A stretch of 22,203 nt of DNA from a virus. Its lineage: Duplodnaviria; Heunggongvirae; Uroviricota; Caudoviricetes. Where the stretch lies: the IMG/VR virus record IMGVR_UViG_3300020050_013219. The stretch is one strand, 5' to 3'. The notes under the pieces are model-generated. The model was not told the DNA's origin. It searched no databases and worked only from the letters and a program-made list of their open reading frames with translations. Position numbers and translations under genes: made by a program. Positions within the stretch are counted from its first letter, which is position 1. Every line of letters begins with the position of its first letter. This document shows positions 2,609-18,256 of the stretch, piece by piece.

Positions 2609-4342
2609 ATGCCTTTTAGAACTGAATTTAGCAAAAACATTTTTAATTACAAGTACAAGCATGAAAAAGCTGAAACTTGGGAACAACTTAGCAAAACTTT
2701 AATTGAAGATGTATGTGGAGGACTTTTACCTCAAGAAGAAATTGATGAATTGATTAAATATCATTCTGAAATGAAATTTATTGCAGGTGGAAGATACTTA
2801 TATTATGCAGGAAGATTAAATAAGTTTTTCAATAATTGTTTTTTACTAAAAGCTTGTGTTGATAATAGAGAAGATTGGGCAGATTTATCTTGGAAATCTG
2901 AATCTTGTCTTATGACAGGAGGAGGGATTGGAGTGGACTATTCTGTTTATAGACCAAAAGGTACTATAATCAAAAGAACTGGTGGACATGCTTCAGGAAC
3001 AGTCTCAAAAATGGAAATGATTAATGAAATTGGTAGAAGAGTAATGCAGGGTGGTTCAAGAAGGTCAGCTATTTACGCCTCATTAAATTGGAAACATGGA
3101 GATGTTGAAGAATTTTTACATGCTAAAGATTGGTATAATATGCCAGTATCAGGAGCTTTTGATGAAAATGGTAATCAAATCACTATCGGTAAGTTAAAAG
3201 AACTTGATTTTAATTATCACGCTCCTCTTGATATGACAAATGTTTCTTTAAATTATGATAATGAGTTTCTTGAAGAAATTTATGGAAAAACTTTTGATGA
3301 ATTAAAAGAAATTTATAAAACAGAAGGAGTTATGGGAATTTTTAATCTTCCGATAATTTCTTTACCTATTATCTTTATTGAAAATTGCAGACAAGCATTG
3401 AAAACAGGAGAACCTGGACATAGTTTTAACTTCTTTGAAAAAGTAATGGAAACATTAAGAAATGCGTGCTGCGAAGTTACAAGCTCTGATGACAGTGATG
3501 TTTGTAATTTAGGTTCTGTAAATATGTCAAGAATTGACAATATTGAAGAATTTGAAAGAGTTAATTATTTAGCATCTAAATTCTTAGTTTGTGGAACTTT
3601 AAAAGCTACTTTACCGTACCAAAAGATTTATGAAGTAAGAGAGAAAAACAGAAGATTAGGTTTAGGTTTAATGGGTGTACATGAATGGTTGCTGCAAAGA
3701 AATTACAAATATGAAGTTACTACTGAATTACATGATTGGTTAAAAGTTTATAAAGAACAAAGTGAGATTGGTGCTAATCAATTATGTAAACAGTTAAACA
3801 TTTCAAAACCAGTAGCTTATAGAGCTATTGCACCAACAGGGACAATAGGAATTATGGCAGGAACAACTACGGGAATTGAACCATTATTTGCAGTAGCTTA
3901 CAAAAGAAGATATTTAAAAGGTAATAAAGAATGGCACTATCAATATGTAATTGATGGAACTGCTAAACTTCTTATCAGTAAATATGGAATACATCCTGAT
4001 AATATTGAAACAGCACTTTCTTTATCAAATGATTATGAAAGAAGAATTAAATTTCAAGCTGATATTCAAGATTATGTGGATATGAGTATTTCTTCAACAA
4101 TTAATTTACCTTCTTGGAATACACCGTTAAATAATGAAAGTAGAGTTAAAGACTTTGCTATGACTTTGGCTAAATATGCTGTAAGATTAAGAGGTTTTAC
4201 TTGCTATCCTGATGGTAGTAGAGGTGGACAACCCTTAACAATAGTAGATTATAATGAGGCAAAGGAAATGGAAGGTCAAGAATTTAAAGAAGAATTTTTT
4301 GATGTCTGTGACCTCGCACATTCAGGCACTTGTGGTGTATAA
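2609..4342 (+). CDS. nrdJ: Class II (adenosylcobalamin-dependent) ribonucleotide reductase, short phage type without ATP-cone
   Basis: FIAGGR, NNCF, GGGIGVDYS, GEPG, RNACCE (thiyl-radical Cys), VCNLGSVN, RRLGLGLMG, IAPTGTIG, ISSTINLP, RGFTCYPDGSR (no class I YY pair), and a C-terminal Cys pair CDLAHSGTCGV. No nrdB gene lies in the window. Confidence 0.9.
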   Translation: MPFRTEFSKNIFNYKYKHEKAETWEQLSKTLIEDVCGGLLPQEEIDELIKYHSEMKFIAGGRYLYYAGRLNKFFNNCFLLKACVDNREDWADLSWKSESCLMTGGGIGVDYSVYRPKGTIIKRTGGHASGTVSKMEMINEIGRRVMQGGSRRSAIYASLNWKHGDVEEFLHAKDWYNMPVSGAFDENGNQITIGKLKELDFNYHAPLDMTNVSLNYDNEFLEEIYGKTFDELKEIYKTEGVMGIFNLPIISLPIIFIENCRQALKTGEPGHSFNFFEKVMETLRNACCEVTSSDDSDVCNLGSVNMSRIDNIEEFERVNYLASKFLVCGTLKATLPYQKIYEVREKNRRLGLGLMGVHEWLLQRNYKYEVTTELHDWLKVYKEQSEIGANQLCKQLNISKPVAYRAIAPTGTIGIMAGTTTGIEPLFAVAYKRRYLKGNKEWHYQYVIDGTAKLLISKYGIHPDNIETALSLSNDYERRIKFQADIQDYVDMSISSTINLPSWNTPLNNESRVKDFAMTLAKYAVRLRGFTCYPDGSRGGQPLTIVDYNEAKEMEGQEFKEEFFDVCDLAHSGTCGV

Positions 4343-4353
4343 CTAATTTTTTA

Positions 4354-4938
4354 ATGAGTAATGTAGGAAGACCTAAAAATTCAAAATATAAAATAGAAGA
4401 TTATATAGGACAAACTATTAATAGATGGACTATTATAGGATTCTCTCACTTAAATAATAAAGGTGAGCAGTATTGGGATGTAAAATGCTCTTGTGGAAAT
4501 ACCGCAAAAACCAGAGTTTATCCATTAGTAAAAGGTAAATCTTGCGGTTGTAAATCTTGCAGACCACAATCTACAATTATGGTACTTGAAGGTTGGAATC
4601 CAAGTATGGTATTTTCTTCCCAATATTATTACTCTATTATGAGTGGAGCTTCTATTAGAAATTTAGAATTTTTAGTCTCTCCTACTTATATCAATGAGTT
4701 ATTTATAAAACAAAAAGGTAAGTGTGCTTTATCAGATATAGATTTAACTTTTAGTAAAAGATTTAAAAACCACGATGGAAATGCTTCTTTAGATAGAATT
4801 GATTCTAAATTAGGTTATATTGAAGGAAATATTCAGTGGGTACATAAGACTATAAACAGTATGAAGTTGAATCTTGATGAAAATGTATTTTTAGATTTTT
4901 GTAGAAAGATAACCATTAAGAATTTTAATCTATTATGA
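4354..4938 (+). CDS. HNH-like endonuclease with N-terminal Cys-rich DNA-binding module, probable free-standing homing endonuclease
   Basis: IGQTINRWTII...WDVKCSCG...GKSCGC N-terminus; KQKGKCALS...SLDRIDSKLGYIEGNIQWVHKTINSMK C-terminus. ATG 4354 is preferred over the TTG at 4330 in the ORF track. Confidence 0.82.
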   Translation: MSNVGRPKNSKYKIEDYIGQTINRWTIIGFSHLNNKGEQYWDVKCSCGNTAKTRVYPLVKGKSCGCKSCRPQSTIMVLEGWNPSMVFSSQYYYSIMSGASIRNLEFLVSPTYINELFIKQKGKCALSDIDLTFSKRFKNHDGNASLDRIDSKLGYIEGNIQWVHKTINSMKLNLDENVFLDFCRKITIKNFNLL

Positions 4939-9888: not shown

Positions 9889-12800
9889 TTACCTTGATAA
9901 TGGGTCAGTAAATATCTTCCCATCAGTTCCTGTCGTTACACCAATCAATTTTAATCCTGCAACTCCAACTTTAAGTTTCCCTTTATTATCGCCTTTAACA
10001 TAAGTAGCACTTGGATTACTTGTTAAAATTTCAAATAAAGCATCTATTTGGTCAAGTGTTCTCATTACAGCAAATGGATTTTTTGCAATTCTCATTACAT
10101 CTTGCATACCACTTGTTAATGGAACACTAAGTCCCATATCATCAGGTTTTTCGTTTAAAAAGAACTCTGTTGTAAATGGAGTATCAATATTTAATGGTTG
10201 AAAATAATTAAAATCTCGACTTATTTTTAAAGTTATTGCCGCAGCAGTTGAGAACATGTAGTCATCATCATCTGAACCTTTTCCAATAGCTAAGAATATT
10301 ACAGCAAATATACTTGTAAAAGTAATAAATGCCTGCTCTATTACAGCTTGTCTAATAGCAATAATTTGTTCATCTGTAAAATACTGTCTTACTCTATCTA
10401 TATTTTCAGGAGTTATCCATAAAATATCTAATGGTGTTACTTTCTTATCACCAATACTTTGCCACATCCATTTTGCATCAGAAAGTATATAGTTGAAAAG
10501 AACTCTATATCTACCTTCATCTCTTTCATTTCTGTTAATCGAATAACCATCTTCTTTATATCTTGATAAGAATCCTGGAACTACCCATTTTTTATAGTTC
10601 TCTAACATTCTACCAAATACATTTTGTCTCATAATAGGACTGTTAATGCCACCTAATGACTTATAGTTTCCTTGCAATTTTCTATTCACTTCCTCTAACT
10701 TGCGTTTTTTATTTATAAGAACATCTTCCCGTACATTTCTCCAACCAACAATATCTCCACTACTCTCTATTGTTTGCCAATTAGCATTTAAGTCATTTGA
10801 AGCTGTTAAGGCTTTCCATAAAGTTGTAGAACTTCCATCAAGAAGTTTGACAGGAATGTTCTCTAATGTGGCAATCATAGCTGTAATTTGTGGCTGAACC
10901 TCTGCAAATTGAGAAGGTGCAAACCATGTAGTTGTACTAAAAGCTTTCCCTAAAAAACTTCTGTTTAACTGATTTCCGAATTTGTCAAAATATTCTCCTT
11001 GTAAAGGTTCTAACTCATCCATTAATTCAGCATAAACACTTGATGAATATTCAGTTTGTTTAACATGGTCAAGAAGCATATCCCACATAACTTTTCCACC
11101 TGAATATAATGCTTTCATATATTGTACCCAAGAATAAAGCTGTTCAGTCTTTGCACCTTCAAAATATCCTGTGGTATTCATTAAATTAGCAGTATTAGCC
11201 ATTCCTAAGTTAGTAAAGAAGTTTACTATTTTTACACCTCCTATTGTTCCAAATGCAGAGAATCCCATAAATTTGTTAAGAATTTTATCAATCCTTACAT
11301 TATGTTTACCAACTTTCCAACTAATAGGAGTATTTGTCTTACCAAAAAATACTCCATCAATCCACTTTTCTAAAAACCACTGCCGCCAGTCAGTTCCTGA
11401 TGGAATTGCTTCTGTAATTCCCATTGCAGCAAGGCTTTTATTAATCATAATTTCTCCAGTTCTATCTTGTTGCTTAGACTTTCCAAGTGTATATTGCATT
11501 TCCTTTGCAAGATGCAAGGTGTCTGCTTTTGCTCTGAAAGCTGCTGCTTGTTTTGCGAACATTAAAACTGTACCAAAATAATTATCAGATATTTCATTTG
11601 CGTTCATACTGTTACCTACATAGTAAATAGGTATTTTTTTACTATCATTTTCTGAAATTTCATCTGAAAAATGGTCAGTAAATTCTTGTTTTAATATTTT
11701 ACCAATAGCCATTTTGTCTTTTAGGTTTTTTTGCATGTATTCTTTTGGAACACTTGGTACTCTTGTCCCAGGTCTGCTATATTCAGGTAAATCCATTTGA
11801 GATTCATAATAAATTTTTGTTACAATATCAAATGCTTTTCTTTCAGAAGCTGATAATGCTGCAAGTTTATTAGAAGGATAACTACCTTTTTTAGGTATGA
11901 GAAGTTTACTACTGTATTTTGGAACAAGAATATCTCCTTTGAAACTATTTGCGATAAGATGATTAATATAAGATTCTTCACTATTTCTCCTAAAAGACTT
12001 ATTGTCGTATTTCATAGTTTTTATATCTAAATTACTTTCAACATAATGATAGAAAGATTGTAAACCTTGTTCACCATTAGCTTTTTTATAATCATCCAAC
12101 ATTCTCATAAAATGGTCTCCAATTGTATTGTTATAATAAGCAATATCTCCATTATCATCAATATAAGAATCTGTTTTATCTTTACTAAAAGCTAACTTTT
12201 CAGTGAAGTCTTTTTGTATTTTAGCTATTTTCACTCTTAATCCTTGTATTTCTGCTCTAATAGCATCGTTAGCATCATTTTGTGCTTTATGTTCAACTTC
12301 ATCAGCAACTGGTTTAGTAGAAATATTTTTATATAATTCGGTTATTTCCTTCCCGATTGCACCTATTTCATTAGCTGTTTTATGATAATCTTCATAATAT
12401 GCTTTCATATCTCTTTCAGAAATAAAATGTTTTTCGGTTCTTTCAATACCTTCTCTATCAGTATATTCGATAATTTCTGTAAAGTTTTTCATTACCTTTT
12501 CGTCATCATAAACTGCTCCTAAATCTTCTGAAAAATCAGTCCAAGCATCGGTCATTTCTTTACCCATAGGAGCAAATCTATTTTGCATTTTTTGAAAATT
12601 TTCTTCTACTCTATTAGCTAACAAAGTCATGGAAGCATCTCCCAAATCATGGATTGAACCTGTTACAGCTTTTAAAAACCCATTATCATTCCCATCCATC
12701 ATTTCATTTTGAATTTGTTGAACACTCGAAATAGTTTTCATTTCTTTCAAACCTTTTCTCAATTCTTCATTTTCTTCTTCAAGTGTTTCCTTTTTTTCAG

Positions 12801-15800
12801 GATTTTTTACTATTTTTTCTACATTTAGAGCTATTTTAGCAAGTATTTTATTATTTTTCTTCTCAATAACTTCGTTATTTGAAGCTATCTTAGCAGCAAT
12901 TTCCTTTTTATTATTAATTTGCAAGGTATGTGCAAAGTGAGTGCTATATTTCAAAGTAAGATTTATCTCTTCCATTGCATCAATCACTTCCTGAATATCT
13001 TGTGCAGCAGAATTATAATCAGACGATTGACCTATACTTTTTAAGTAAGCGTTTATATCCTCTGTTTGATTTCTACTTTGTTTCATAATTAATTTTAAAT
13101 TAGCAATTTCAGATTGATTAGTATGAATATCTAAATAAGTTCTAATATAAGCAGCCATTTCTGTATATTTTTTATGCTGTTCATCAGTCCATTCAGAAGT
13201 ATCTCCTTTGTAATCAGCAGCTATTTTCTTTGCAAGCCCTAAGAGATTGCTGTTAAGTACATTTGTATAAGCAGAGTTATCCGTAGAAATTTCTCCTTTT
13301 GAAATAAGATTATATTTTAAATTACTCACATACATAACAATAGAAGCTGCTTGTTTTATTGTCTTTAATAACTCGGTTTCAGTAGCATGTTCTTTGTTTA
13401 TATTTCTAATTTTAGAAGCATGAGTAACATTATCATTGTAAAGCGTTTTACCACTATTATTTCTACTAACATTAGAAAGTTCTTTTCCCATTTCCTCATA
13501 AGAAGTAACTATTTTACTAACCCAATCAAAAGTTGCAACTTCTACTTCTGTTGGATTTAATGGAATATAATTATCAGCTTCTTCCATTGCTAAATCCTCT
13601 ATTGGTTTATTTTCACTTAACTCACTTTCATGCTCATTAAAAGGTACATCGTCAATAGGTTTATTATTAGAAATTTCTTCATTTGGAGCAGTCCTAAACA
13701 CATTAAAATCAGCATCATAAGGAATTGTTTGCCCATCTTCTGTTGTTAAATCATTTTCATTTAAAGCAGTTACTCTTAATCTTACCTTGTCATTTACTAT
13801 TAAATCTCCAACTTGAACATTATCTTTGCTAAGTTTTCCTTGCATTTCTTGACCACCTTCAACTGATTTTTGATAATAAGTATTAAAATTATTACTGTTT
13901 ATTACTTCACTTCTAATTAATGAACGTGGATATTTTTTAGCAACTTCTTTTAAAGCAGATATTTTTGTGTTGATAAGAGCTTGTTCATTGTATTCTTTTC
14001 CTTTGTATCTACTCCTATATTCATCCCCATTATCTTCTACCCAATTTTCAGCTTGCTCACGAGTTTCAAAATTTTGTATATAATCTGAAATATTTCCTCC
14101 GACATCTGTATTATTTATAAATAGTCCGAAAGGTCTTTCATCATTATCACCTGTATCTCCTACATCTTCTAATATTTGATAAGATAATTCTTCAATATCA
14201 AATGAAGTTTTAAACTTTGCTACTTTATCTTTAATCTTTCCAATACTTTCTTTCAAATCTTTTTCAGTTATATTAGGTTGAATACCATTATTTCTTTGAG
14301 ATTTAACTAAAGTAAATCTTTTCCCTGCTTCAACACTTTTATCTTGATAAGCATCTATAAAATCTAAAGCTTTCTTTTCATCTAAATAGGTATTGATTAT
14401 TTTAGTTGAACCATCATCATTAATATCCCAATTATCATGTACTTCAAAAACTTTTACAGTACTTCCTTTTACAGCAATTTCAGGTTTCTTAATCTTACCA
14501 TAAGTATCATCTAAAACAGAATTAACAACTCCTACCAATCTTTTAATTTCATAAGGTACATCTTCATCTACCTCAAGCCTAAAATTGTTGCTTAAAACAA
14601 TACCAAGTTCATTATGATGGTCTGCAAGGTTATCTACAATTGAAGCTAAATTTGGCTGCACAGAATTGATATTAGCCAAAGAAGGATATTTTGTGTAACT
14701 TACCCCAAGTAATTCAGATTTTTTATCTTTATTTACTTTTTCTGCCGCATCCCAAACAGAACCACTATAAGCATCTCTATTAGTTGCCCATAAAATATCT
14801 TCAGGTTTTGGATAAATTACAAATTTAATTTTTCCACCGCCACCTTCAAGATGAGAAATATTTTTATCAATAGGTTTTGTAAAGGCTGAAATAGCAAAAT
14901 GTCCACCTGCTTTTTTATTATCTTCAATATGATGCAGTAAGTTTTGAAACATAAGCTTTACATCAAATTGAGAATAAGCTCCCACAACTGAATAAAAACC
15001 TTGACCTCTACTATAAATTTCTTCAGGATTGTATTTTATACTGTTTACTTTTTTCCATTCTTCGATAATTTCCTTTGATTGTTCAAATTCTTTGTTTTTT
15101 TCTATAAAAGCTTGAAGATTTTGAGGAGTTGTTTTCATATTTGTTCCTTCATTTATAGGAGCATATTTTATAGAATCTTTCCATATTTCTAAAGCTTCTT
15201 GTTTTGATATTTCATTAATATCTTCTTCCCCCATATATTGACTAAACCATTTATTATCTTTTTTAAATACTCTTACACTATCTCCATCTTCACCTTGATT
15301 GAAAACAAAATAATCAGGCATTTCATTAATATCTAAATTTTTGTTTGTTAAATCAACATCTTTAACACTATTAGCTAATTTACTAATATGATTACTTGCT
15401 TCTTGATAAGTTTTAAATGTTTGATTATCTGGGGTTGTATAAATCACTTCATTTTCTGGAAGTATAATCTTAGAATTGCTATAAGCTAAAATATTAGCAA
15501 TATCATTTAAAGTCATATTATCAGGTAATTTATCTACTTCAATTTCTTTTTGTCTAAGAAGATTTCTCATAAAAGTAGCCATTTCTTTAAGTAATCTTTT
15601 CAATAAAGAAATAAGTTTACCATCTTTTACAGCATCAAGTTTTTCAGCAGTCATTAAAGAAACAAGTTCTACAATAGCTTCTTCTTGTTGTTCTTCTAAA
15701 TCATATTTTGCTACTACTAAAGAATCCGTATATATATTATTATTTAATTTTTTTAAAAAAGCTCTTGCTTCCATACCAATTCCTGCTTCCTCTACTCTAT

Positions 15801-17892
15801 TTCTATTTTTATCATATAAAACATCTACCCATTTATCATTTACATAGCCTTTATCAATTCTATAAAAATTACTTTCTCTTATAGGATAATCTTTCTTAAT
15901 TCTATCAAGTACTTCTTTACCTTTTCCACTTTCGAGTTCTTTGAGAAGATTATTATATAATACAGAACGTTGTTCAATTAAAACACTTTCTTTCCCTTTA
16001 TCTGTATTATAAGTTTCTTCTTTAAGACTTACTTTGTTTTTAATAGCATTTATAATAGGATGCCCTAAAATTTCATGGATAGAAGTGTCCAATGTAGCAT
16101 AAGCCAAATTAATAGTAGCAATATTTCCTTCCAATTTTCCTTTAAAATTTTGACTTCTATCAGATATAAATTCAACTTCTATCCCAATTCTATTAGCTAA
16201 TCTTGCAGCTAAATCTCTTATTGTTTTTTCAGAAGCAATAAAATCTTGATTAGATTGACCTGAATTATTTTGATAATAAGTTTTTGGTTTATTATCTACA
16301 ATCTTTAATTTACCAACTTGGCTATCAGTACTTCCAATTTCGGATTTTACAATATTTGTAAGATTATTTAAAGCTCTTTCAGCCAAAGTTCCTTCAACTT
16401 TAATTCCAAGTTTACTTAGCATATCTTTAAACATTTGAATAAGTTTACCAATGAAAGAATCATCTTTAATAGCAGCTAATTCTTCAACAAAAGATTGTTT
16501 GGAAAGTGCCGCATAAAATTCATCAATAGAACTAAATTCATACCTTGTATTAGAAGGGTCTAAAATAGCCTTAGAATCAATCCAAACTTTTTCCATGTCT
16601 TTATATACCTTTGGAGAGTTCTTCTTCCAATAGGCTAATTTAAGGGCTGTGAGAGCATGTATGACTTCATGTGTAAAAACTGTTTCAGGATTGGTTGAAT
16701 TGACATTCAACCTTATAATTCCATTATCAAAATGACCTGCTTCTACAATGTTATCTACAATTTCTACTTTCATATTATCAATAGATTGATTACTAAGTCC
16801 GTAAAGCATTTTGAGTAATTTGTTTGCATGATTATTAGGGTTTTTATAATTTTTAACAAATTCAGAAAAATGTTCTGTATCTTTTTTAGAACCCAATATA
16901 TAAACTTGTTTTGAATCAGTAACTATATAACTTTTACCTTCACCTTCAAATTTATTTTCATAAACAATTCCTTCTGTTGAAGTTTTTATAGTTTTTCTTA
17001 AAATTTCATCCCATACTTCATTATGTTGAACATCTTCTGACCCATAAAGTTTACTAATATTTAATAAAACAGGTATAATTTTTAAAGTCTTATTTTTATC
17101 TTTATTTATCTCTTCATTCAAACTATCTATATATTTTTGTTTTCTTTCTTCTAATGTATTTATTACACTTTTAGGTAATTCTTCAAAAGATATTGACTTA
17201 TTGCTTGTATTAAATTCTCCATCAGAAGTAATTGAAGTTATACTTTCTATTAATTTTTTATTTTCATTATAATAATAATTTTTATTTCCGAATCTAACAG
17301 AATCTCCTTTAGAAGCTAAATCTTCATATTTAATATTATCAGGATTAATAGGTTGCACATTTTGAACAAGACTGTTATCAAATATACTTGCTTGTTCTAA
17401 AGTTCCAAAATGTAAACCTGCACTGTATAAATTACCTAAAGCATTTTGCTCCATCGGTACTTGAAAAGTATCAAAAGATTCAGTAGTCCCATGGTATAAA
17501 ATATCTTTTACTTTACTATTGGGAAATATAGTGCTTAAATATTCTGAATACTGTTTTCTTGTTCCTATTTTTTCTAATTCAGAATTTTGTTCAAATACAA
17601 AATCAACTTCTTCTGAAACAAGTTTTTCTCCAATATTCTCAAATATTTCTTTAAAAGAATAAATTCCCTGCTTATATTTTTTATTTCCAATGGTTATTTC
17701 TGTTTGATTTAAAGTTTTTTCATTAGATTTTAAAATTCCCTCCACTAAATCATTAGCGGAAGGAAAATCATAAGTATTATTTTTATCTTGCCAAACAGCA
17801 ATTTTAGCAGCTACAATGATAGGTTTTAATCCTAATTCATCACTCAATTCTTTAACTTGAATACTGTTATAATCTATACATCTTTTGTTCAT
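9889..17892 (-). CDS. Giant polyvalent, probably virion-packaged/ejected protein (2667 aa) of crAss-like type
   Basis: Uninterrupted 8-kb ORF. It carries an ART-like domain, HEVIH and HEILGH zincin motifs, a long helical C-terminal half and one hydrophobic TM segment. The N-terminal C...ELSDELGL.P..VAAKIAVWQ.KN motif is one I associate with crAss-like giant proteins. Confidence 0.85.
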   Translation of the reverse strand: MNKRCIDYNSIQVKELSDELGLKPIIVAAKIAVWQDKNNTYDFPSANDLVEGILKSNEKTLNQTEITIGNKKYKQGIYSFKEIFENIGEKLVSEEVDFVFEQNSELEKIGTRKQYSEYLSTIFPNSKVKDILYHGTTESFDTFQVPMEQNALGNLYSAGLHFGTLEQASIFDNSLVQNVQPINPDNIKYEDLASKGDSVRFGNKNYYYNENKKLIESITSITSDGEFNTSNKSISFEELPKSVINTLEERKQKYIDSLNEEINKDKNKTLKIIPVLLNISKLYGSEDVQHNEVWDEILRKTIKTSTEGIVYENKFEGEGKSYIVTDSKQVYILGSKKDTEHFSEFVKNYKNPNNHANKLLKMLYGLSNQSIDNMKVEIVDNIVEAGHFDNGIIRLNVNSTNPETVFTHEVIHALTALKLAYWKKNSPKVYKDMEKVWIDSKAILDPSNTRYEFSSIDEFYAALSKQSFVEELAAIKDDSFIGKLIQMFKDMLSKLGIKVEGTLAERALNNLTNIVKSEIGSTDSQVGKLKIVDNKPKTYYQNNSGQSNQDFIASEKTIRDLAARLANRIGIEVEFISDRSQNFKGKLEGNIATINLAYATLDTSIHEILGHPIINAIKNKVSLKEETYNTDKGKESVLIEQRSVLYNNLLKELESGKGKEVLDRIKKDYPIRESNFYRIDKGYVNDKWVDVLYDKNRNRVEEAGIGMEARAFLKKLNNNIYTDSLVVAKYDLEEQQEEAIVELVSLMTAEKLDAVKDGKLISLLKRLLKEMATFMRNLLRQKEIEVDKLPDNMTLNDIANILAYSNSKIILPENEVIYTTPDNQTFKTYQEASNHISKLANSVKDVDLTNKNLDINEMPDYFVFNQGEDGDSVRVFKKDNKWFSQYMGEEDINEISKQEALEIWKDSIKYAPINEGTNMKTTPQNLQAFIEKNKEFEQSKEIIEEWKKVNSIKYNPEEIYSRGQGFYSVVGAYSQFDVKLMFQNLLHHIEDNKKAGGHFAISAFTKPIDKNISHLEGGGGKIKFVIYPKPEDILWATNRDAYSGSVWDAAEKVNKDKKSELLGVSYTKYPSLANINSVQPNLASIVDNLADHHNELGIVLSNNFRLEVDEDVPYEIKRLVGVVNSVLDDTYGKIKKPEIAVKGSTVKVFEVHDNWDINDDGSTKIINTYLDEKKALDFIDAYQDKSVEAGKRFTLVKSQRNNGIQPNITEKDLKESIGKIKDKVAKFKTSFDIEELSYQILEDVGDTGDNDERPFGLFINNTDVGGNISDYIQNFETREQAENWVEDNGDEYRSRYKGKEYNEQALINTKISALKEVAKKYPRSLIRSEVINSNNFNTYYQKSVEGGQEMQGKLSKDNVQVGDLIVNDKVRLRVTALNENDLTTEDGQTIPYDADFNVFRTAPNEEISNNKPIDDVPFNEHESELSENKPIEDLAMEEADNYIPLNPTEVEVATFDWVSKIVTSYEEMGKELSNVSRNNSGKTLYNDNVTHASKIRNINKEHATETELLKTIKQAASIVMYVSNLKYNLISKGEISTDNSAYTNVLNSNLLGLAKKIAADYKGDTSEWTDEQHKKYTEMAAYIRTYLDIHTNQSEIANLKLIMKQSRNQTEDINAYLKSIGQSSDYNSAAQDIQEVIDAMEEINLTLKYSTHFAHTLQINNKKEIAAKIASNNEVIEKKNNKILAKIALNVEKIVKNPEKKETLEEENEELRKGLKEMKTISSVQQIQNEMMDGNDNGFLKAVTGSIHDLGDASMTLLANRVEENFQKMQNRFAPMGKEMTDAWTDFSEDLGAVYDDEKVMKNFTEIIEYTDREGIERTEKHFISERDMKAYYEDYHKTANEIGAIGKEITELYKNISTKPVADEVEHKAQNDANDAIRAEIQGLRVKIAKIQKDFTEKLAFSKDKTDSYIDDNGDIAYYNNTIGDHFMRMLDDYKKANGEQGLQSFYHYVESNLDIKTMKYDNKSFRRNSEESYINHLIANSFKGDILVPKYSSKLLIPKKGSYPSNKLAALSASERKAFDIVTKIYYESQMDLPEYSRPGTRVPSVPKEYMQKNLKDKMAIGKILKQEFTDHFSDEISENDSKKIPIYYVGNSMNANEISDNYFGTVLMFAKQAAAFRAKADTLHLAKEMQYTLGKSKQQDRTGEIMINKSLAAMGITEAIPSGTDWRQWFLEKWIDGVFFGKTNTPISWKVGKHNVRIDKILNKFMGFSAFGTIGGVKIVNFFTNLGMANTANLMNTTGYFEGAKTEQLYSWVQYMKALYSGGKVMWDMLLDHVKQTEYSSSVYAELMDELEPLQGEYFDKFGNQLNRSFLGKAFSTTTWFAPSQFAEVQPQITAMIATLENIPVKLLDGSSTTLWKALTASNDLNANWQTIESSGDIVGWRNVREDVLINKKRKLEEVNRKLQGNYKSLGGINSPIMRQNVFGRMLENYKKWVVPGFLSRYKEDGYSINRNERDEGRYRVLFNYILSDAKWMWQSIGDKKVTPLDILWITPENIDRVRQYFTDEQIIAIRQAVIEQAFITFTSIFAVIFLAIGKGSDDDDYMFSTAAAITLKISRDFNYFQPLNIDTPFTTEFFLNEKPDDMGLSVPLTSGMQDVMRIAKNPFAVMRTLDQIDALFEILTSNPSATYVKGDNKGKLKVGVAGLKLIGVTTGTDGKIFTDPLSR
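10282..10333 (-). other. Predicted transmembrane helix near the C-terminus of the 2667-aa protein
   Basis: AFITFTSIFAVIFLAIG followed by an acidic DDDD stretch. Confidence 0.65.
13868..16281 (-). repeat. 14-nt exact direct repeat (ACTTATTATCAAAA on the coding strand) bounding a 2400-bp in-frame segment
   Basis: ttttgataataagt at 13868-13881 and 16268-16281; both copies encode T-Y-Y-Q-(N/K), at residues 538 and 1338. Confidence 0.6.
15470..16250 (-). other. Zincin-like metallopeptidase domain (HExxxH variant) within the 2667-aa protein
   Basis: KGKLEGNIATINLAYATLDTSIHEILGH (HEILGH at 16060-16077) plus downstream QEEAIVEL. Confidence 0.6.
16420..16790 (-). other. Zincin-like metallopeptidase domain (HExxH) within the 2667-aa protein
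   Basis: AGHFDNGIIRLN...FTHEVIHALT (HEVIH at 16657-16671) plus SSIDEFYA as candidate third ligand. Confidence 0.7.
16855..17600 (-). other. ADP-ribosyltransferase-like (ART-PolyVal-type) domain within the 2667-aa protein
   Basis: LYHGT...F..F (17485-17496), GLHFGTLEQA (17401-17412), IIPVLLNI, EGIVYENKFEGEGKSYIV..SKQVYIL. Confidence 0.65.
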
Positions 17893-17902
17893 TACAAATT
17901 AG

Positions 17903-18256
17903 TTATTTCAAGTTTTTCAACTTATATATTGTGCTGTAAATCAATTCAATAGCAGATTGCACGATTTGTTGTAAAAATCCATCTTTTAAACTTTTTTCAT
18001 ATTCTTCAAAAGCAAGAACTTTTCTTTTCAGGTAAACAATCATGTCTTGACCTTCTGGTTCTTTTTTAATAGGAATATCCTTGATTATTCCATATTTACC
18101 AATATAAGACTCACAAAATTTATCACGCCAATCAACAATCTCTTCATATAAAGTATTTAAAGCCATGTGTTGTGAATAACTTGTTGTCTGTAAATGAGCT
18201 ATGTGAGCAGTTGTTTCAATTTCAAATAAAGCTCCTATAAATTCTTGTACTGTCAT
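17903..18256 (-). CDS. Ferritin/Dps-like four-helix protein (DUF5856-like)
   Basis: AHIAHLQTTSYSQHMALNTLYEE...DKFCESYIGKYG...STIYKLKNL, matching the phage ferritin-like family. Confidence 0.75.
   Translation of the reverse strand: MTVQEFIGALFEIETTAHIAHLQTTSYSQHMALNTLYEEIVDWRDKFCESYIGKYGIIKDIPIKKEPEGQDMIVYLKRKVLAFEEYEKSLKDGFLQQIVQSAIELIYSTIYKLKNLK

Follow-up and report, generated by a model that had tools for sequence, protein, structure and literature searches.

Conserved aromatic-Gln motifs at the ends of a predicted zincin and ADP-ribosyltransferase-fold module of giant phage proteins: candidate cleavage sites

What does it mean that a phage gene encodes the same tetrapeptide, with the same 14 nucleotides (nt), at both ends of a segment of about 800 amino acids (aa)? 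The question is raised by IMG/VR virus record IMGVR_UViG_3300020050_013219, a 22,203-nt stretch of DNA from a virus of the Caudoviricetes (the whole stretch is called the window below), in which the minus-strand open reading frame (ORF) P0001 encodes a giant protein carrying the peptide TYYQ at both limits of a segment with a predicted protease. A sequence-only reading of the window had proposed that the segment is a mobile cassette, which inserts into or excises from giant virion genes by short-homology recombination or target duplication, and/or that TYYQ is the site at which the protease frees it. The comparison of P0001 with its homologs reported here largely refutes the mobile cassette and points to a conserved protein module whose two boundary motifs may be sites of proteolysis.

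A constant module and its two boundary motifs

Two copies of the 14-mer ACTTATTATCAAAA, and no more, are present in the window, both of them on the minus strand (13868-13881 and 16268-16281). As had been claimed, the two copies stand 2400 nt apart in one frame, that of the ORF 9889..17892 (minus), and begin at residues 538 and 1338. Each copy encodes T-Y-Y-Q (residues 538-541 and 1338-1341) plus the first two bases of the next codon (N or K); both of these codons start with AA. An expectation of zero matches applies to one given word, and the fair null is any repeat of at least 14 nt within the ORF. By this measure the P0001 ORF contains four exact direct repeats (16, 15, 14 and 14 nt), every one of them in frame, and codon shuffles of the ORF (n = 500) contain a mean of 2.06 repeats of at least 14 nt, with at least one in 87% of shuffles, which bears out the earlier caveat that a single 14-mer match is statistically weak. 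Repeated four-residue peptides number 60 in the ORF with 56.6 expected, and at the codon usage of P0001 (TAT 89%, CAA 91%, ACT 47%) two TYYQ peptides would be coded identically with P = 0.23. As DNA, the 14-nt repeat is ordinary and not significant against chance; the two 14-mers are identical because both motifs read T-Y-Y-Q in the P0001 lineage and codon bias is strong.

The placement of the copies at boundaries is, judged by homology, not due to chance. The first copy lies 13 aa ahead of the first helix of the zincin-like domain (HEILGH at 606-611) and the second 10 aa past the KYPRSLIRSEV helix. More than 100 other giant proteins are homologous to a stretch that opens at residues 529-553 and closes at 1330-1343, in agreement with the earlier claim that the copies fall at domain boundaries. 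The parts of P0001 are as follows (coordinates are those of the window).

9889..17892, minus strand: ORF P0001, a giant polyvalent-type phage protein with the module; 2667 aa, with homologs of 1.5-7.4 kaa (thousand aa) on IMG/VR viral contigs
17704..17892, minus strand: N-terminal leader, aa 1-63, with the only cysteine of P0001, C5 (17878-17880), and the end K-T-L-N-Q (59-63)
16282..17703, minus strand: N-flank block, aa 64-537, with a first zincin-like motif, HEVIH, at 408-412; not in P0003
16270..16281, minus strand: N-boundary motif T-Y-Y-Q, aa 538-541, in the first 14-mer copy (16268-16281); apparent lineage form of [VTI]-x-[YF]-Q
15532..16260, minus strand: predicted zincin-like metallopeptidase domain, aa 545-787; HEXXXH = H606-E607-I-L-G-H611 (16060-16077)
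15115..15531, minus strand: middle region, aa 788-926, with a conserved …YTTPDN.KFKTYQEASNH… and a variable insert at ~849-921
14467..15114, minus strand: predicted ADP-ribosyltransferase-fold core, aa 927-1142; candidate R-S-E = R962, S1002, E1095
13882..14466, minus strand: C-terminal part of the module, aa 1143-1337, a variable alpha/beta insert and then conserved helices to KEVAKKYPRSLIRSEV (1315-1330)
13870..13881, minus strand: C-boundary motif T-Y-Y-Q, aa 1338-1341, in the second 14-mer copy (13868-13881); apparent lineage form of D-E-L-P-F-Q-K
9892..13869, minus strand: C-terminal region, aa 1342-2667, long and helical, hydrophobic in segments towards its end; common to P0003-P0006 and outside the module

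Among 5.8 billion proteins searched, 158 giants were retrieved; outside four close relatives, they match P0001 with ~50% identity over ~30% of its length. In a BLAST mapping, ~115 proteins of 1.5-4.6 kaa align to P0001 at ~535-1335 only, again with ~50% identity, and their alignment starts and ends cluster at the limits given above (529-553 and 1330-1343). More than 200 giant phage proteins share the segment in all. Their flanks are unrelated, with varied Pfam domains (ART-PolyVal, AAA_33, AlkB-like, RNase H, helicases, NADAR), and the segment begins anywhere from position ~30 to ~3400 of the subject protein. It is encoded on 26 IMG/VR viral contigs, and exactly once per genome in two relatives of 96 and 107 kb. 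Forms of ~870-970 aa, found on long contigs in a second search, consist of leader, module and short tail; the leader lies directly upstream of the module in 33 of 92 homologs. On this evidence residues ~538-1341 constitute a conserved self-contained module, made up of a zincin-like domain, a linker region, an ADP-ribosyltransferase (ART)-fold core and a helical C-terminal cap. By the same comparison, what stays constant is the ~800-aa segment and what is exchanged is its flanks, so that the payload-swapping picture drawn from the window's sequence is inverted.

The linkers around both motifs cannot be aligned among homologs, and each contains one conserved short motif. At the N-terminal boundary (N site) it reads [VTI]-x-[YF]-Q-[NLK] and precedes the first conserved helix (…SEKTIRDLAAR…) by a fixed 10-13 aa, with [FY]Q present in 92 of 99 related homologs. 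At the C-terminal boundary (C site) it reads D-E-L-P-F-Q-K-[IV]-[PS] and follows …KYPRSLIRSEV by 10-25 aa, with [FYW]Q in 94 of 97. Any [FYW]Q would be met by chance in the stretches concerned at a background of 13% (N site) and 20% (C site). The strength of this evidence comes from the conservation of the motif against variable neighbouring residues and not from the raw counts. A position-specific profile of the C site gives exactly one match per protein in 89 of 99 proteins, always at the module boundary, and 0.05 in total in shuffled sequences; the motif is therefore specific to the module and not a general effect of composition. The same profile found no C-type motif at other domain junctions of the giants. 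In the clade of P0001, P0003, P0004 and P0005 the C site reads N-F-N-T-Y-Y-Q-K, and the N site of P0001 and P0003, K-T-Y-Y-Q, fits the general N consensus. Read against their homologs, the two TYYQ copies are the P0001-lineage versions of two conserved module-boundary motifs. The C site is retained even with a tail of 18-68 aa after it. Two YQ-K peptides of P0002, the neighbouring giant protein (DFYQ-K at 397 and DVYQ-K at 915), were considered as further sites and dropped; the second is NVYE-K in the ortholog at locus L027 and is not conserved.

Predicted folds of the module

An AlphaFold model was made of P0001 residues 528-1350 (823 aa) and has a mean pLDDT (predicted local distance difference test) of 67. 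The two boundary motifs lie in stretches with pLDDT <50 (model residues 1-20 and 808-823), the only such terminal stretches. Foldseek found no match to the entire 823-aa model in the PDB at E<=0.001, and no match to the module profile was found among PDB sequences. In the first domain, H606, E607 and H611 are invariant in 45 sequences, as is a Q-E-E in a downstream helix; a Glu-rich helix, EEQQEEAIVE at 733-742, is conserved. The predicted order is a helix, a three-stranded sheet and the HEXXXH helix. Sequence and model together thus show the features of a zincin-like metallopeptidase (MPTase) of the HEXXXH type, with a putative Glu ligand.

The ART-fold core (927-1142) is the most conserved part of the module, with 70-78% identity among proteins that are ~50% identical elsewhere. 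Modelled alone, it reaches a pLDDT of 80 and a pTM (predicted template modelling score) of 0.81. Comparison with 48,161 chains by VIA gave Z>=2 for 13 chains, of which 12 have the ART fold: CteC, four of DarT, SopF, Tpt1, Scabin, CopC, OspC3, pierisin and LT. The best match is CteC (Z 6.1, root-mean-square deviation 4.6, 159 aligned), with DarT at Z 4.3-4.5, and the top six rows of a Foldseek search with the core are likewise CteC (best E 0.02). The fold is tentatively assigned because ART proteins are enriched among the matches; the single scores are modest. CteC, a Chromobacterium mono-ADP-ribosyltransferase (PDB 8UX2/8HTC), and DarT are the best structural matches of this 216-aa core, but at 10-13% identity, with Z <8 and no relation at the sequence level. 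The invariant residues R962, S1002/T1005 and E1095, which adjoin predicted strands, offer a candidate R-S-E order, assigned by sequence and not by superposition. A profile of the core, run against 1.84 billion representatives, retrieved 187 clusters (177 at E<=1e-10), nearly all of them giants (up to 7385 aa) or fragments. No known ART family was among the 187 clusters, and the core matched neither Pfam ART-PolyVal nor any other Pfam family.

Cleavage at the boundary motifs and its alternatives

We consider it slightly better than even, at a probability of about 0.55, that the module is released by proteolysis at the two aromatic-Gln motifs. Cleavage is favoured because a protease-bearing unit is bracketed by similar motifs in disordered linkers, and these are kept with the unit and gone without it: the motif is present at both module ends in ~95% of homologs and missing from the junction of P0006, where the module is absent. 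A short conserved motif, a disordered linker, exact domain limits and variable surroundings are the layout of a polyprotein junction. Giant polyvalent proteins would travel in the virion and enter the host together with the DNA. The motifs, with their pattern of an aliphatic or beta-branched residue, any residue, an aromatic residue and Gln, would mark two cut sites, one parting the module from the leader or upstream domains and the other parting it from downstream domains or the tail. The zincin inside the module would cut at both; we infer the scissile bond and the enzymatic activity as well. The two motif copies are in this sense specific candidate cleavage sites, and the module's own zincin is the most likely protease, with a confidence lower than that in cleavage itself.

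Several observations weigh against this. The support for cleavage is comparative, and the homologs counted above are related sequences, so that the counts overstate the independent support. The zincin-like domain matches nothing in Pfam or among PDB sequences, and the VIA matches of its part of the model (model residues 75-260) are weak, at Z ~5 (Certhrax and edema-factor N-terminal regions). At locus L030 the zincin is split by an endonuclease gene and the downstream piece retains the C site, which means that the site does not require an intact protease in the same chain. The C site is also kept before tails of only 18-30 aa, as would fit a docking motif or a pseudo-substrate. Finally, the N4 virion RNA polymerase carries an MPTase and is reported to be packaged unprocessed (Iyer, Burroughs, Anand, de Souza, Aravind 2017, PMC5512222). 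A predicted complex of the zincin domain, the C-site linker and Zn scored 0.02 and speaks neither for nor against binding.

The last two of the opposing points would be explained if the motifs were never cut and acted as short linear motifs, for example for docking to the capsid or portal during packaging, or as a pseudo-substrate that keeps the zincin latent; the motifs also adjoin conserved leader and tail elements that bear lone cysteines. We nevertheless think this unlikely, since the same pattern at P4, P2 and P1 recurs on both sides of the protease-holding domain, exactly at the limits of homology and in disordered linkers, as is usual at polyprotein junctions, and since no structural contact is predicted for the motifs (pLDDT <50).

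Next in order is the possibility that the motifs are real processing sites cut by something else, either another phage MPTase acting in trans (HEVIH of P0001 or HEYIH of P0002) or a host protease. The window encodes at least three zincin-like motifs over two giant proteins (HEILGH and HEVIH 408-412 in P0001, HEYIH in P0002), and P0005, a variant with a decapitated zincin, retains the C site. A site with an aliphatic P4, an aromatic P2 and Gln at P1 resembles those of Gln-specific viral cysteine proteases and is atypical for a zincin. Against an outside protease, the C-type motif occurs beside the module only, not at other junctions of the same giants, and strictly co-occurs with the module. 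Two families of prohead protease that were tried, S78 and ClpP, were not found in the two related genomes (96-107 kb), a weak argument with two families. An outside protease is in our view an improbable agent.

Far less probable than either is that the 2.4-kb segment is mobile DNA that moves through its 14-nt direct repeats, by target-site duplication or short-homology recombination. An in-frame repeat does exist, but at the level expected by chance. The check proposed for the cassette, a search for different host proteins and for flanking repeats, bore out the first, the module being present in many different protein contexts, and not the second: at 10 other loci, with a length from Q to Q of 724-855 aa, the two boundaries share only 5-10 nt, which are no more than the F/Y-Q-K codons, and only the sister locus L027 shares 13 nt. 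No transposase or integrase family was detected in the segment at E<=10. No single public run contained more than 18% of the words of the segment, all of them in contigs of relatives; four of these show no joint of ~13881 to ~16268, bearing in mind that contigs cannot show absence, and the joints that are seen in relatives' contigs replace variable inserts within the module.

An ortholog without the segment had been expected to show a single TYYQ at the empty site. Such an ortholog, P0006, exists at locus L028 (19.5 kb of the 50.7-kb contig examined), where a giant gene, several small genes (one of them of DUF5856), the ortholog and a divergent gene block are syntenic. P0006 matches P0001 in the leader, in the C-terminal 1200 aa and, almost identically, in the first zincin (P0001 aa ~355-520), and has ~300 aa of unrelated sequence where the module would be. 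No TYYQ-type motif stands there: [FYW]Q occurs twice in its 1752 aa and not at the junction, so no empty site with a single motif was met. The replacement sequence (L028:10750-11660, aa ~250-553) contains …VSIIDLKTTKS…, which resembles a PD-(D/E)xK nuclease motif; if the likeness holds, P0006 would have a different payload in the place of the module.

The closest comparison is with locus L027, which encodes P0003 and is 90-95% identical to the window at the nucleotide level in the common parts and 84% in the zincin. Both variable inserts (~849-921 and ~1138-1298) are missing from it, and from aa 1299 onward the identity is 95%, unbroken through the C site, with no breakpoint at the C-site repeat. 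Breakpoints among close relatives fall within the module. One difference touches a boundary: the block of P0001 aa 59-537 (window 16282-17718, with HEVIH at 408-412) is missing from P0003, an indel from just after the leader to the N site. At the other end of this indel P0001 has K-T-L-N-Q and P0003 has K-T-Y-Y-Q, and KTLNQ is possibly a third junction motif in degenerate form. This single case, the indel of ~55-535, is compatible with exchange at junction motifs and is, with the in-frame repeat and the many protein contexts, what the mobile cassette has in its favour.

The mobile DNA that is evident at these loci lies elsewhere, as GIY-YIG endonuclease cassettes inserted inside the module. 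In L029 (2-7414) and L030 (3944-14329) the orthologous gene is split within the module by a free-standing GIY-YIG homing-endonuclease gene. In L029 the split follows the position of P0001 aa 1128; in L030 it follows aa ~641 and separates the HEXXXH helix from the downstream Glu helix. At both splits the upstream piece has gained a tail of ~17 aa that ends …K-E-C-stop and the downstream piece a leader of ~27 aa that starts M-A-C-K-Y-K-Y…. The stop of the upstream piece overlaps the start of the endonuclease gene (GAATGTTAA). Between the two loci, the endonucleases share 45% identity in their first ~100 residues and the leader-coding DNA 76%. Phage genes split by free-standing homing endonuclease genes are known as fractured or split genes. 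The position of the GIY-YIG gene between two halves of the ortholog is as in these, but here a Cys-ended tail and an M-A-C leader are added, without intein-sized splicing domains.

That two functionless TYYQ peptides happen to sit in linkers would accord with the chance level of repeated tetrapeptides (60 in the ORF), but is scarcely credible for a motif kept at both sites in ~95% of a set of over 130 homologs with an identity of only ~50%.

Gene neighbourhood, terminal cysteines and known systems

The phage context of P0001 is indicated by a ribonucleotide reductase gene, HNH genes and the IMG/VR contigs that carry homologs. None of the fifths of P0001, searched one by one, had a credible Pfam family, and GenBank phages gave one weak C-terminal match to P0001 (tblastn) and zero nucleotide matches (megablast). 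The neighbouring P0002 has matches to AlkB-like 2OG-Fe(II) oxygenases and DprA-like proteins. Between the two giant genes lies a conserved 117-aa gene (17903-18256, minus strand; phrog_858, DUF5856 in relatives); this gene is found between giants in the window, L028 and L030, and is missing in L027, where the giants abut. Further along, a ribonucleotide reductase gene (577 aa) and then an overlapping HNH endonuclease gene occupy 2609-4938, and a second, similar HNH gene is at 1233-1739. The reductase homolog at L027:20434-23968 carries instead an intein with a LAGLIDADG domain, so that one reductase gene holds different selfish elements among close relatives.

Cysteines are rare in the module-bearing proteins (n = 240), at 0.093% of residues or a mean of 1.6 per protein, and concentrate at the ends. 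A cysteine is found at residues 2-7 in 214 of 235 Met-starting module proteins (expected 1.3), and in the last six residues in 111 of 240 (expected 1.3). The single cysteine of P0001 is C5 (17878-17880), and that of P0002, in its visible 1307 aa, is C1305 (18288-18290), third from the C end; the upstream giants of L027 and L028 end …K-K-C-N and …K-R-C-K-I. Where the module is the last domain (for example in P0122-P0135), the C site is followed by a tail of 18-68 aa of the pattern [WF]..L[ST].EE[KRQ]..[IL]K.C plus 0-3 residues, and the C end of P0002 (18282-18340) has the same tail pattern (…WNSLSDEEQQKMRDCNL). An 84-aa ORF at L028:9371-9625 consists of an N-terminal Cys-leader (MKHCMNKSHP…) joined directly to a C-terminal Cys-tail (…DKETQDKIKDCNL), without cargo, and a 34-aa ORF at L030:3465-3569 of a Cys-tail alone. 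The distribution suggests that the terminal cysteines are functional, in linking, packaging or a metal switch for instance. We found no description in the literature of the terminal-cysteine rule or of endonuclease cassettes that bring their own Cys ends.

A conjecture that we hold to be improbable as it stands is that the aromatic-Gln sites, the N-terminal Cys-leader and the C-terminal Cys-tail together make up a cargo-handling system. If so, cysteine-purged injected proteins would be joined head-to-tail, or to a part of the virion, through their terminal cysteines (by disulfide or metal), would be packaged and ejected as a chain, and would be cut apart by the zincin at [FY]Q inside the host. 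Endonuclease cassettes with a Cys-tail and a Cys-leader could then split cargo genes anywhere without destroying them.

Parts of the proposed processing have counterparts in known systems. T4 Alt, like the T4 internal proteins, is packed in the head and injected; Alt is an ADP-ribosyltransferase, and a short N-terminal targeting leader is cut off by a protease at a defined motif. The likeness lies in an ADP-ribosyltransferase cargo with an N-terminal leader cut, here by prediction, at a defined motif. T4, however, uses the prohead serine protease gp21 with the site L/I-x-E, whereas the P0001 module has a candidate zincin within the cargo, an aromatic-Gln motif and a second site at its C end. 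MARTX and the large clostridial toxins are secreted bacterial toxins in which a cysteine protease activated by InsP6 (inositol hexakisphosphate) cuts after Leu. A built-in protease that frees effector domains at short inter-domain motifs is what we propose here too, but with a zincin, a Gln motif and a phage virion protein, and with no sequence relation. Gln-specific sites are familiar from tobacco etch virus (TEV) NIa (E-N-L-Y-F-Q/S), tobacco vein mottling virus (TVMV; E-T-V-R-F-Q/S) and the 3C proteases, all of them chymotrypsin-like cysteine proteases. An aliphatic P4, an aromatic P2 and Gln at P1 recur in D-E-L-P-F-Q-K and [VTI]-x-[YF]-Q, a likeness of motif only, and no chymotrypsin-like cysteine protease domain was seen here.

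The nearest relatives by architecture are the polyvalent proteins of phages and conjugative elements, in which zincin-like MPTases, including a HEXXXH type, are described as hub domains (Iyer, Burroughs, Anand, de Souza, Aravind 2017, PMC5512222). Polyvalent proteins unite several disparate activities in one phage or plasmid polypeptide, and P0001 holds two zincin-like motifs and an ART-fold core. As in the account given there, a giant phage protein is composed of unrelated enzymatic domains, with a HEXXXH zincin, and ART is a frequent partner of the MPTase. Autoproteolytic processing by the MPTase is predicted there with sites unnamed; the paper gives no cleavage site, linker motif or cysteine pattern, and a ~800-aa zincin-ART super-module with conserved end motifs does not form part of the account in its accessible text (PMC5512222). 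No described cleavage motif for crAss-like or polyvalent giants came up in a search of the literature.

By sequence, the module is a well-delimited new variant within the polyvalent phage proteins. The processing predicted in 2017 now has two precisely placed conserved candidate motifs on a widespread ~800-aa module, and the view of modularity is corrected, in that the segment is the constant core around which flanks are swapped. The core also defines a tight new family of predicted ART fold, nearly all within giant phage proteins or their fragments, whose members, to judge from the modelled fold, are likely host-modifying effectors of abundant aquatic phages.

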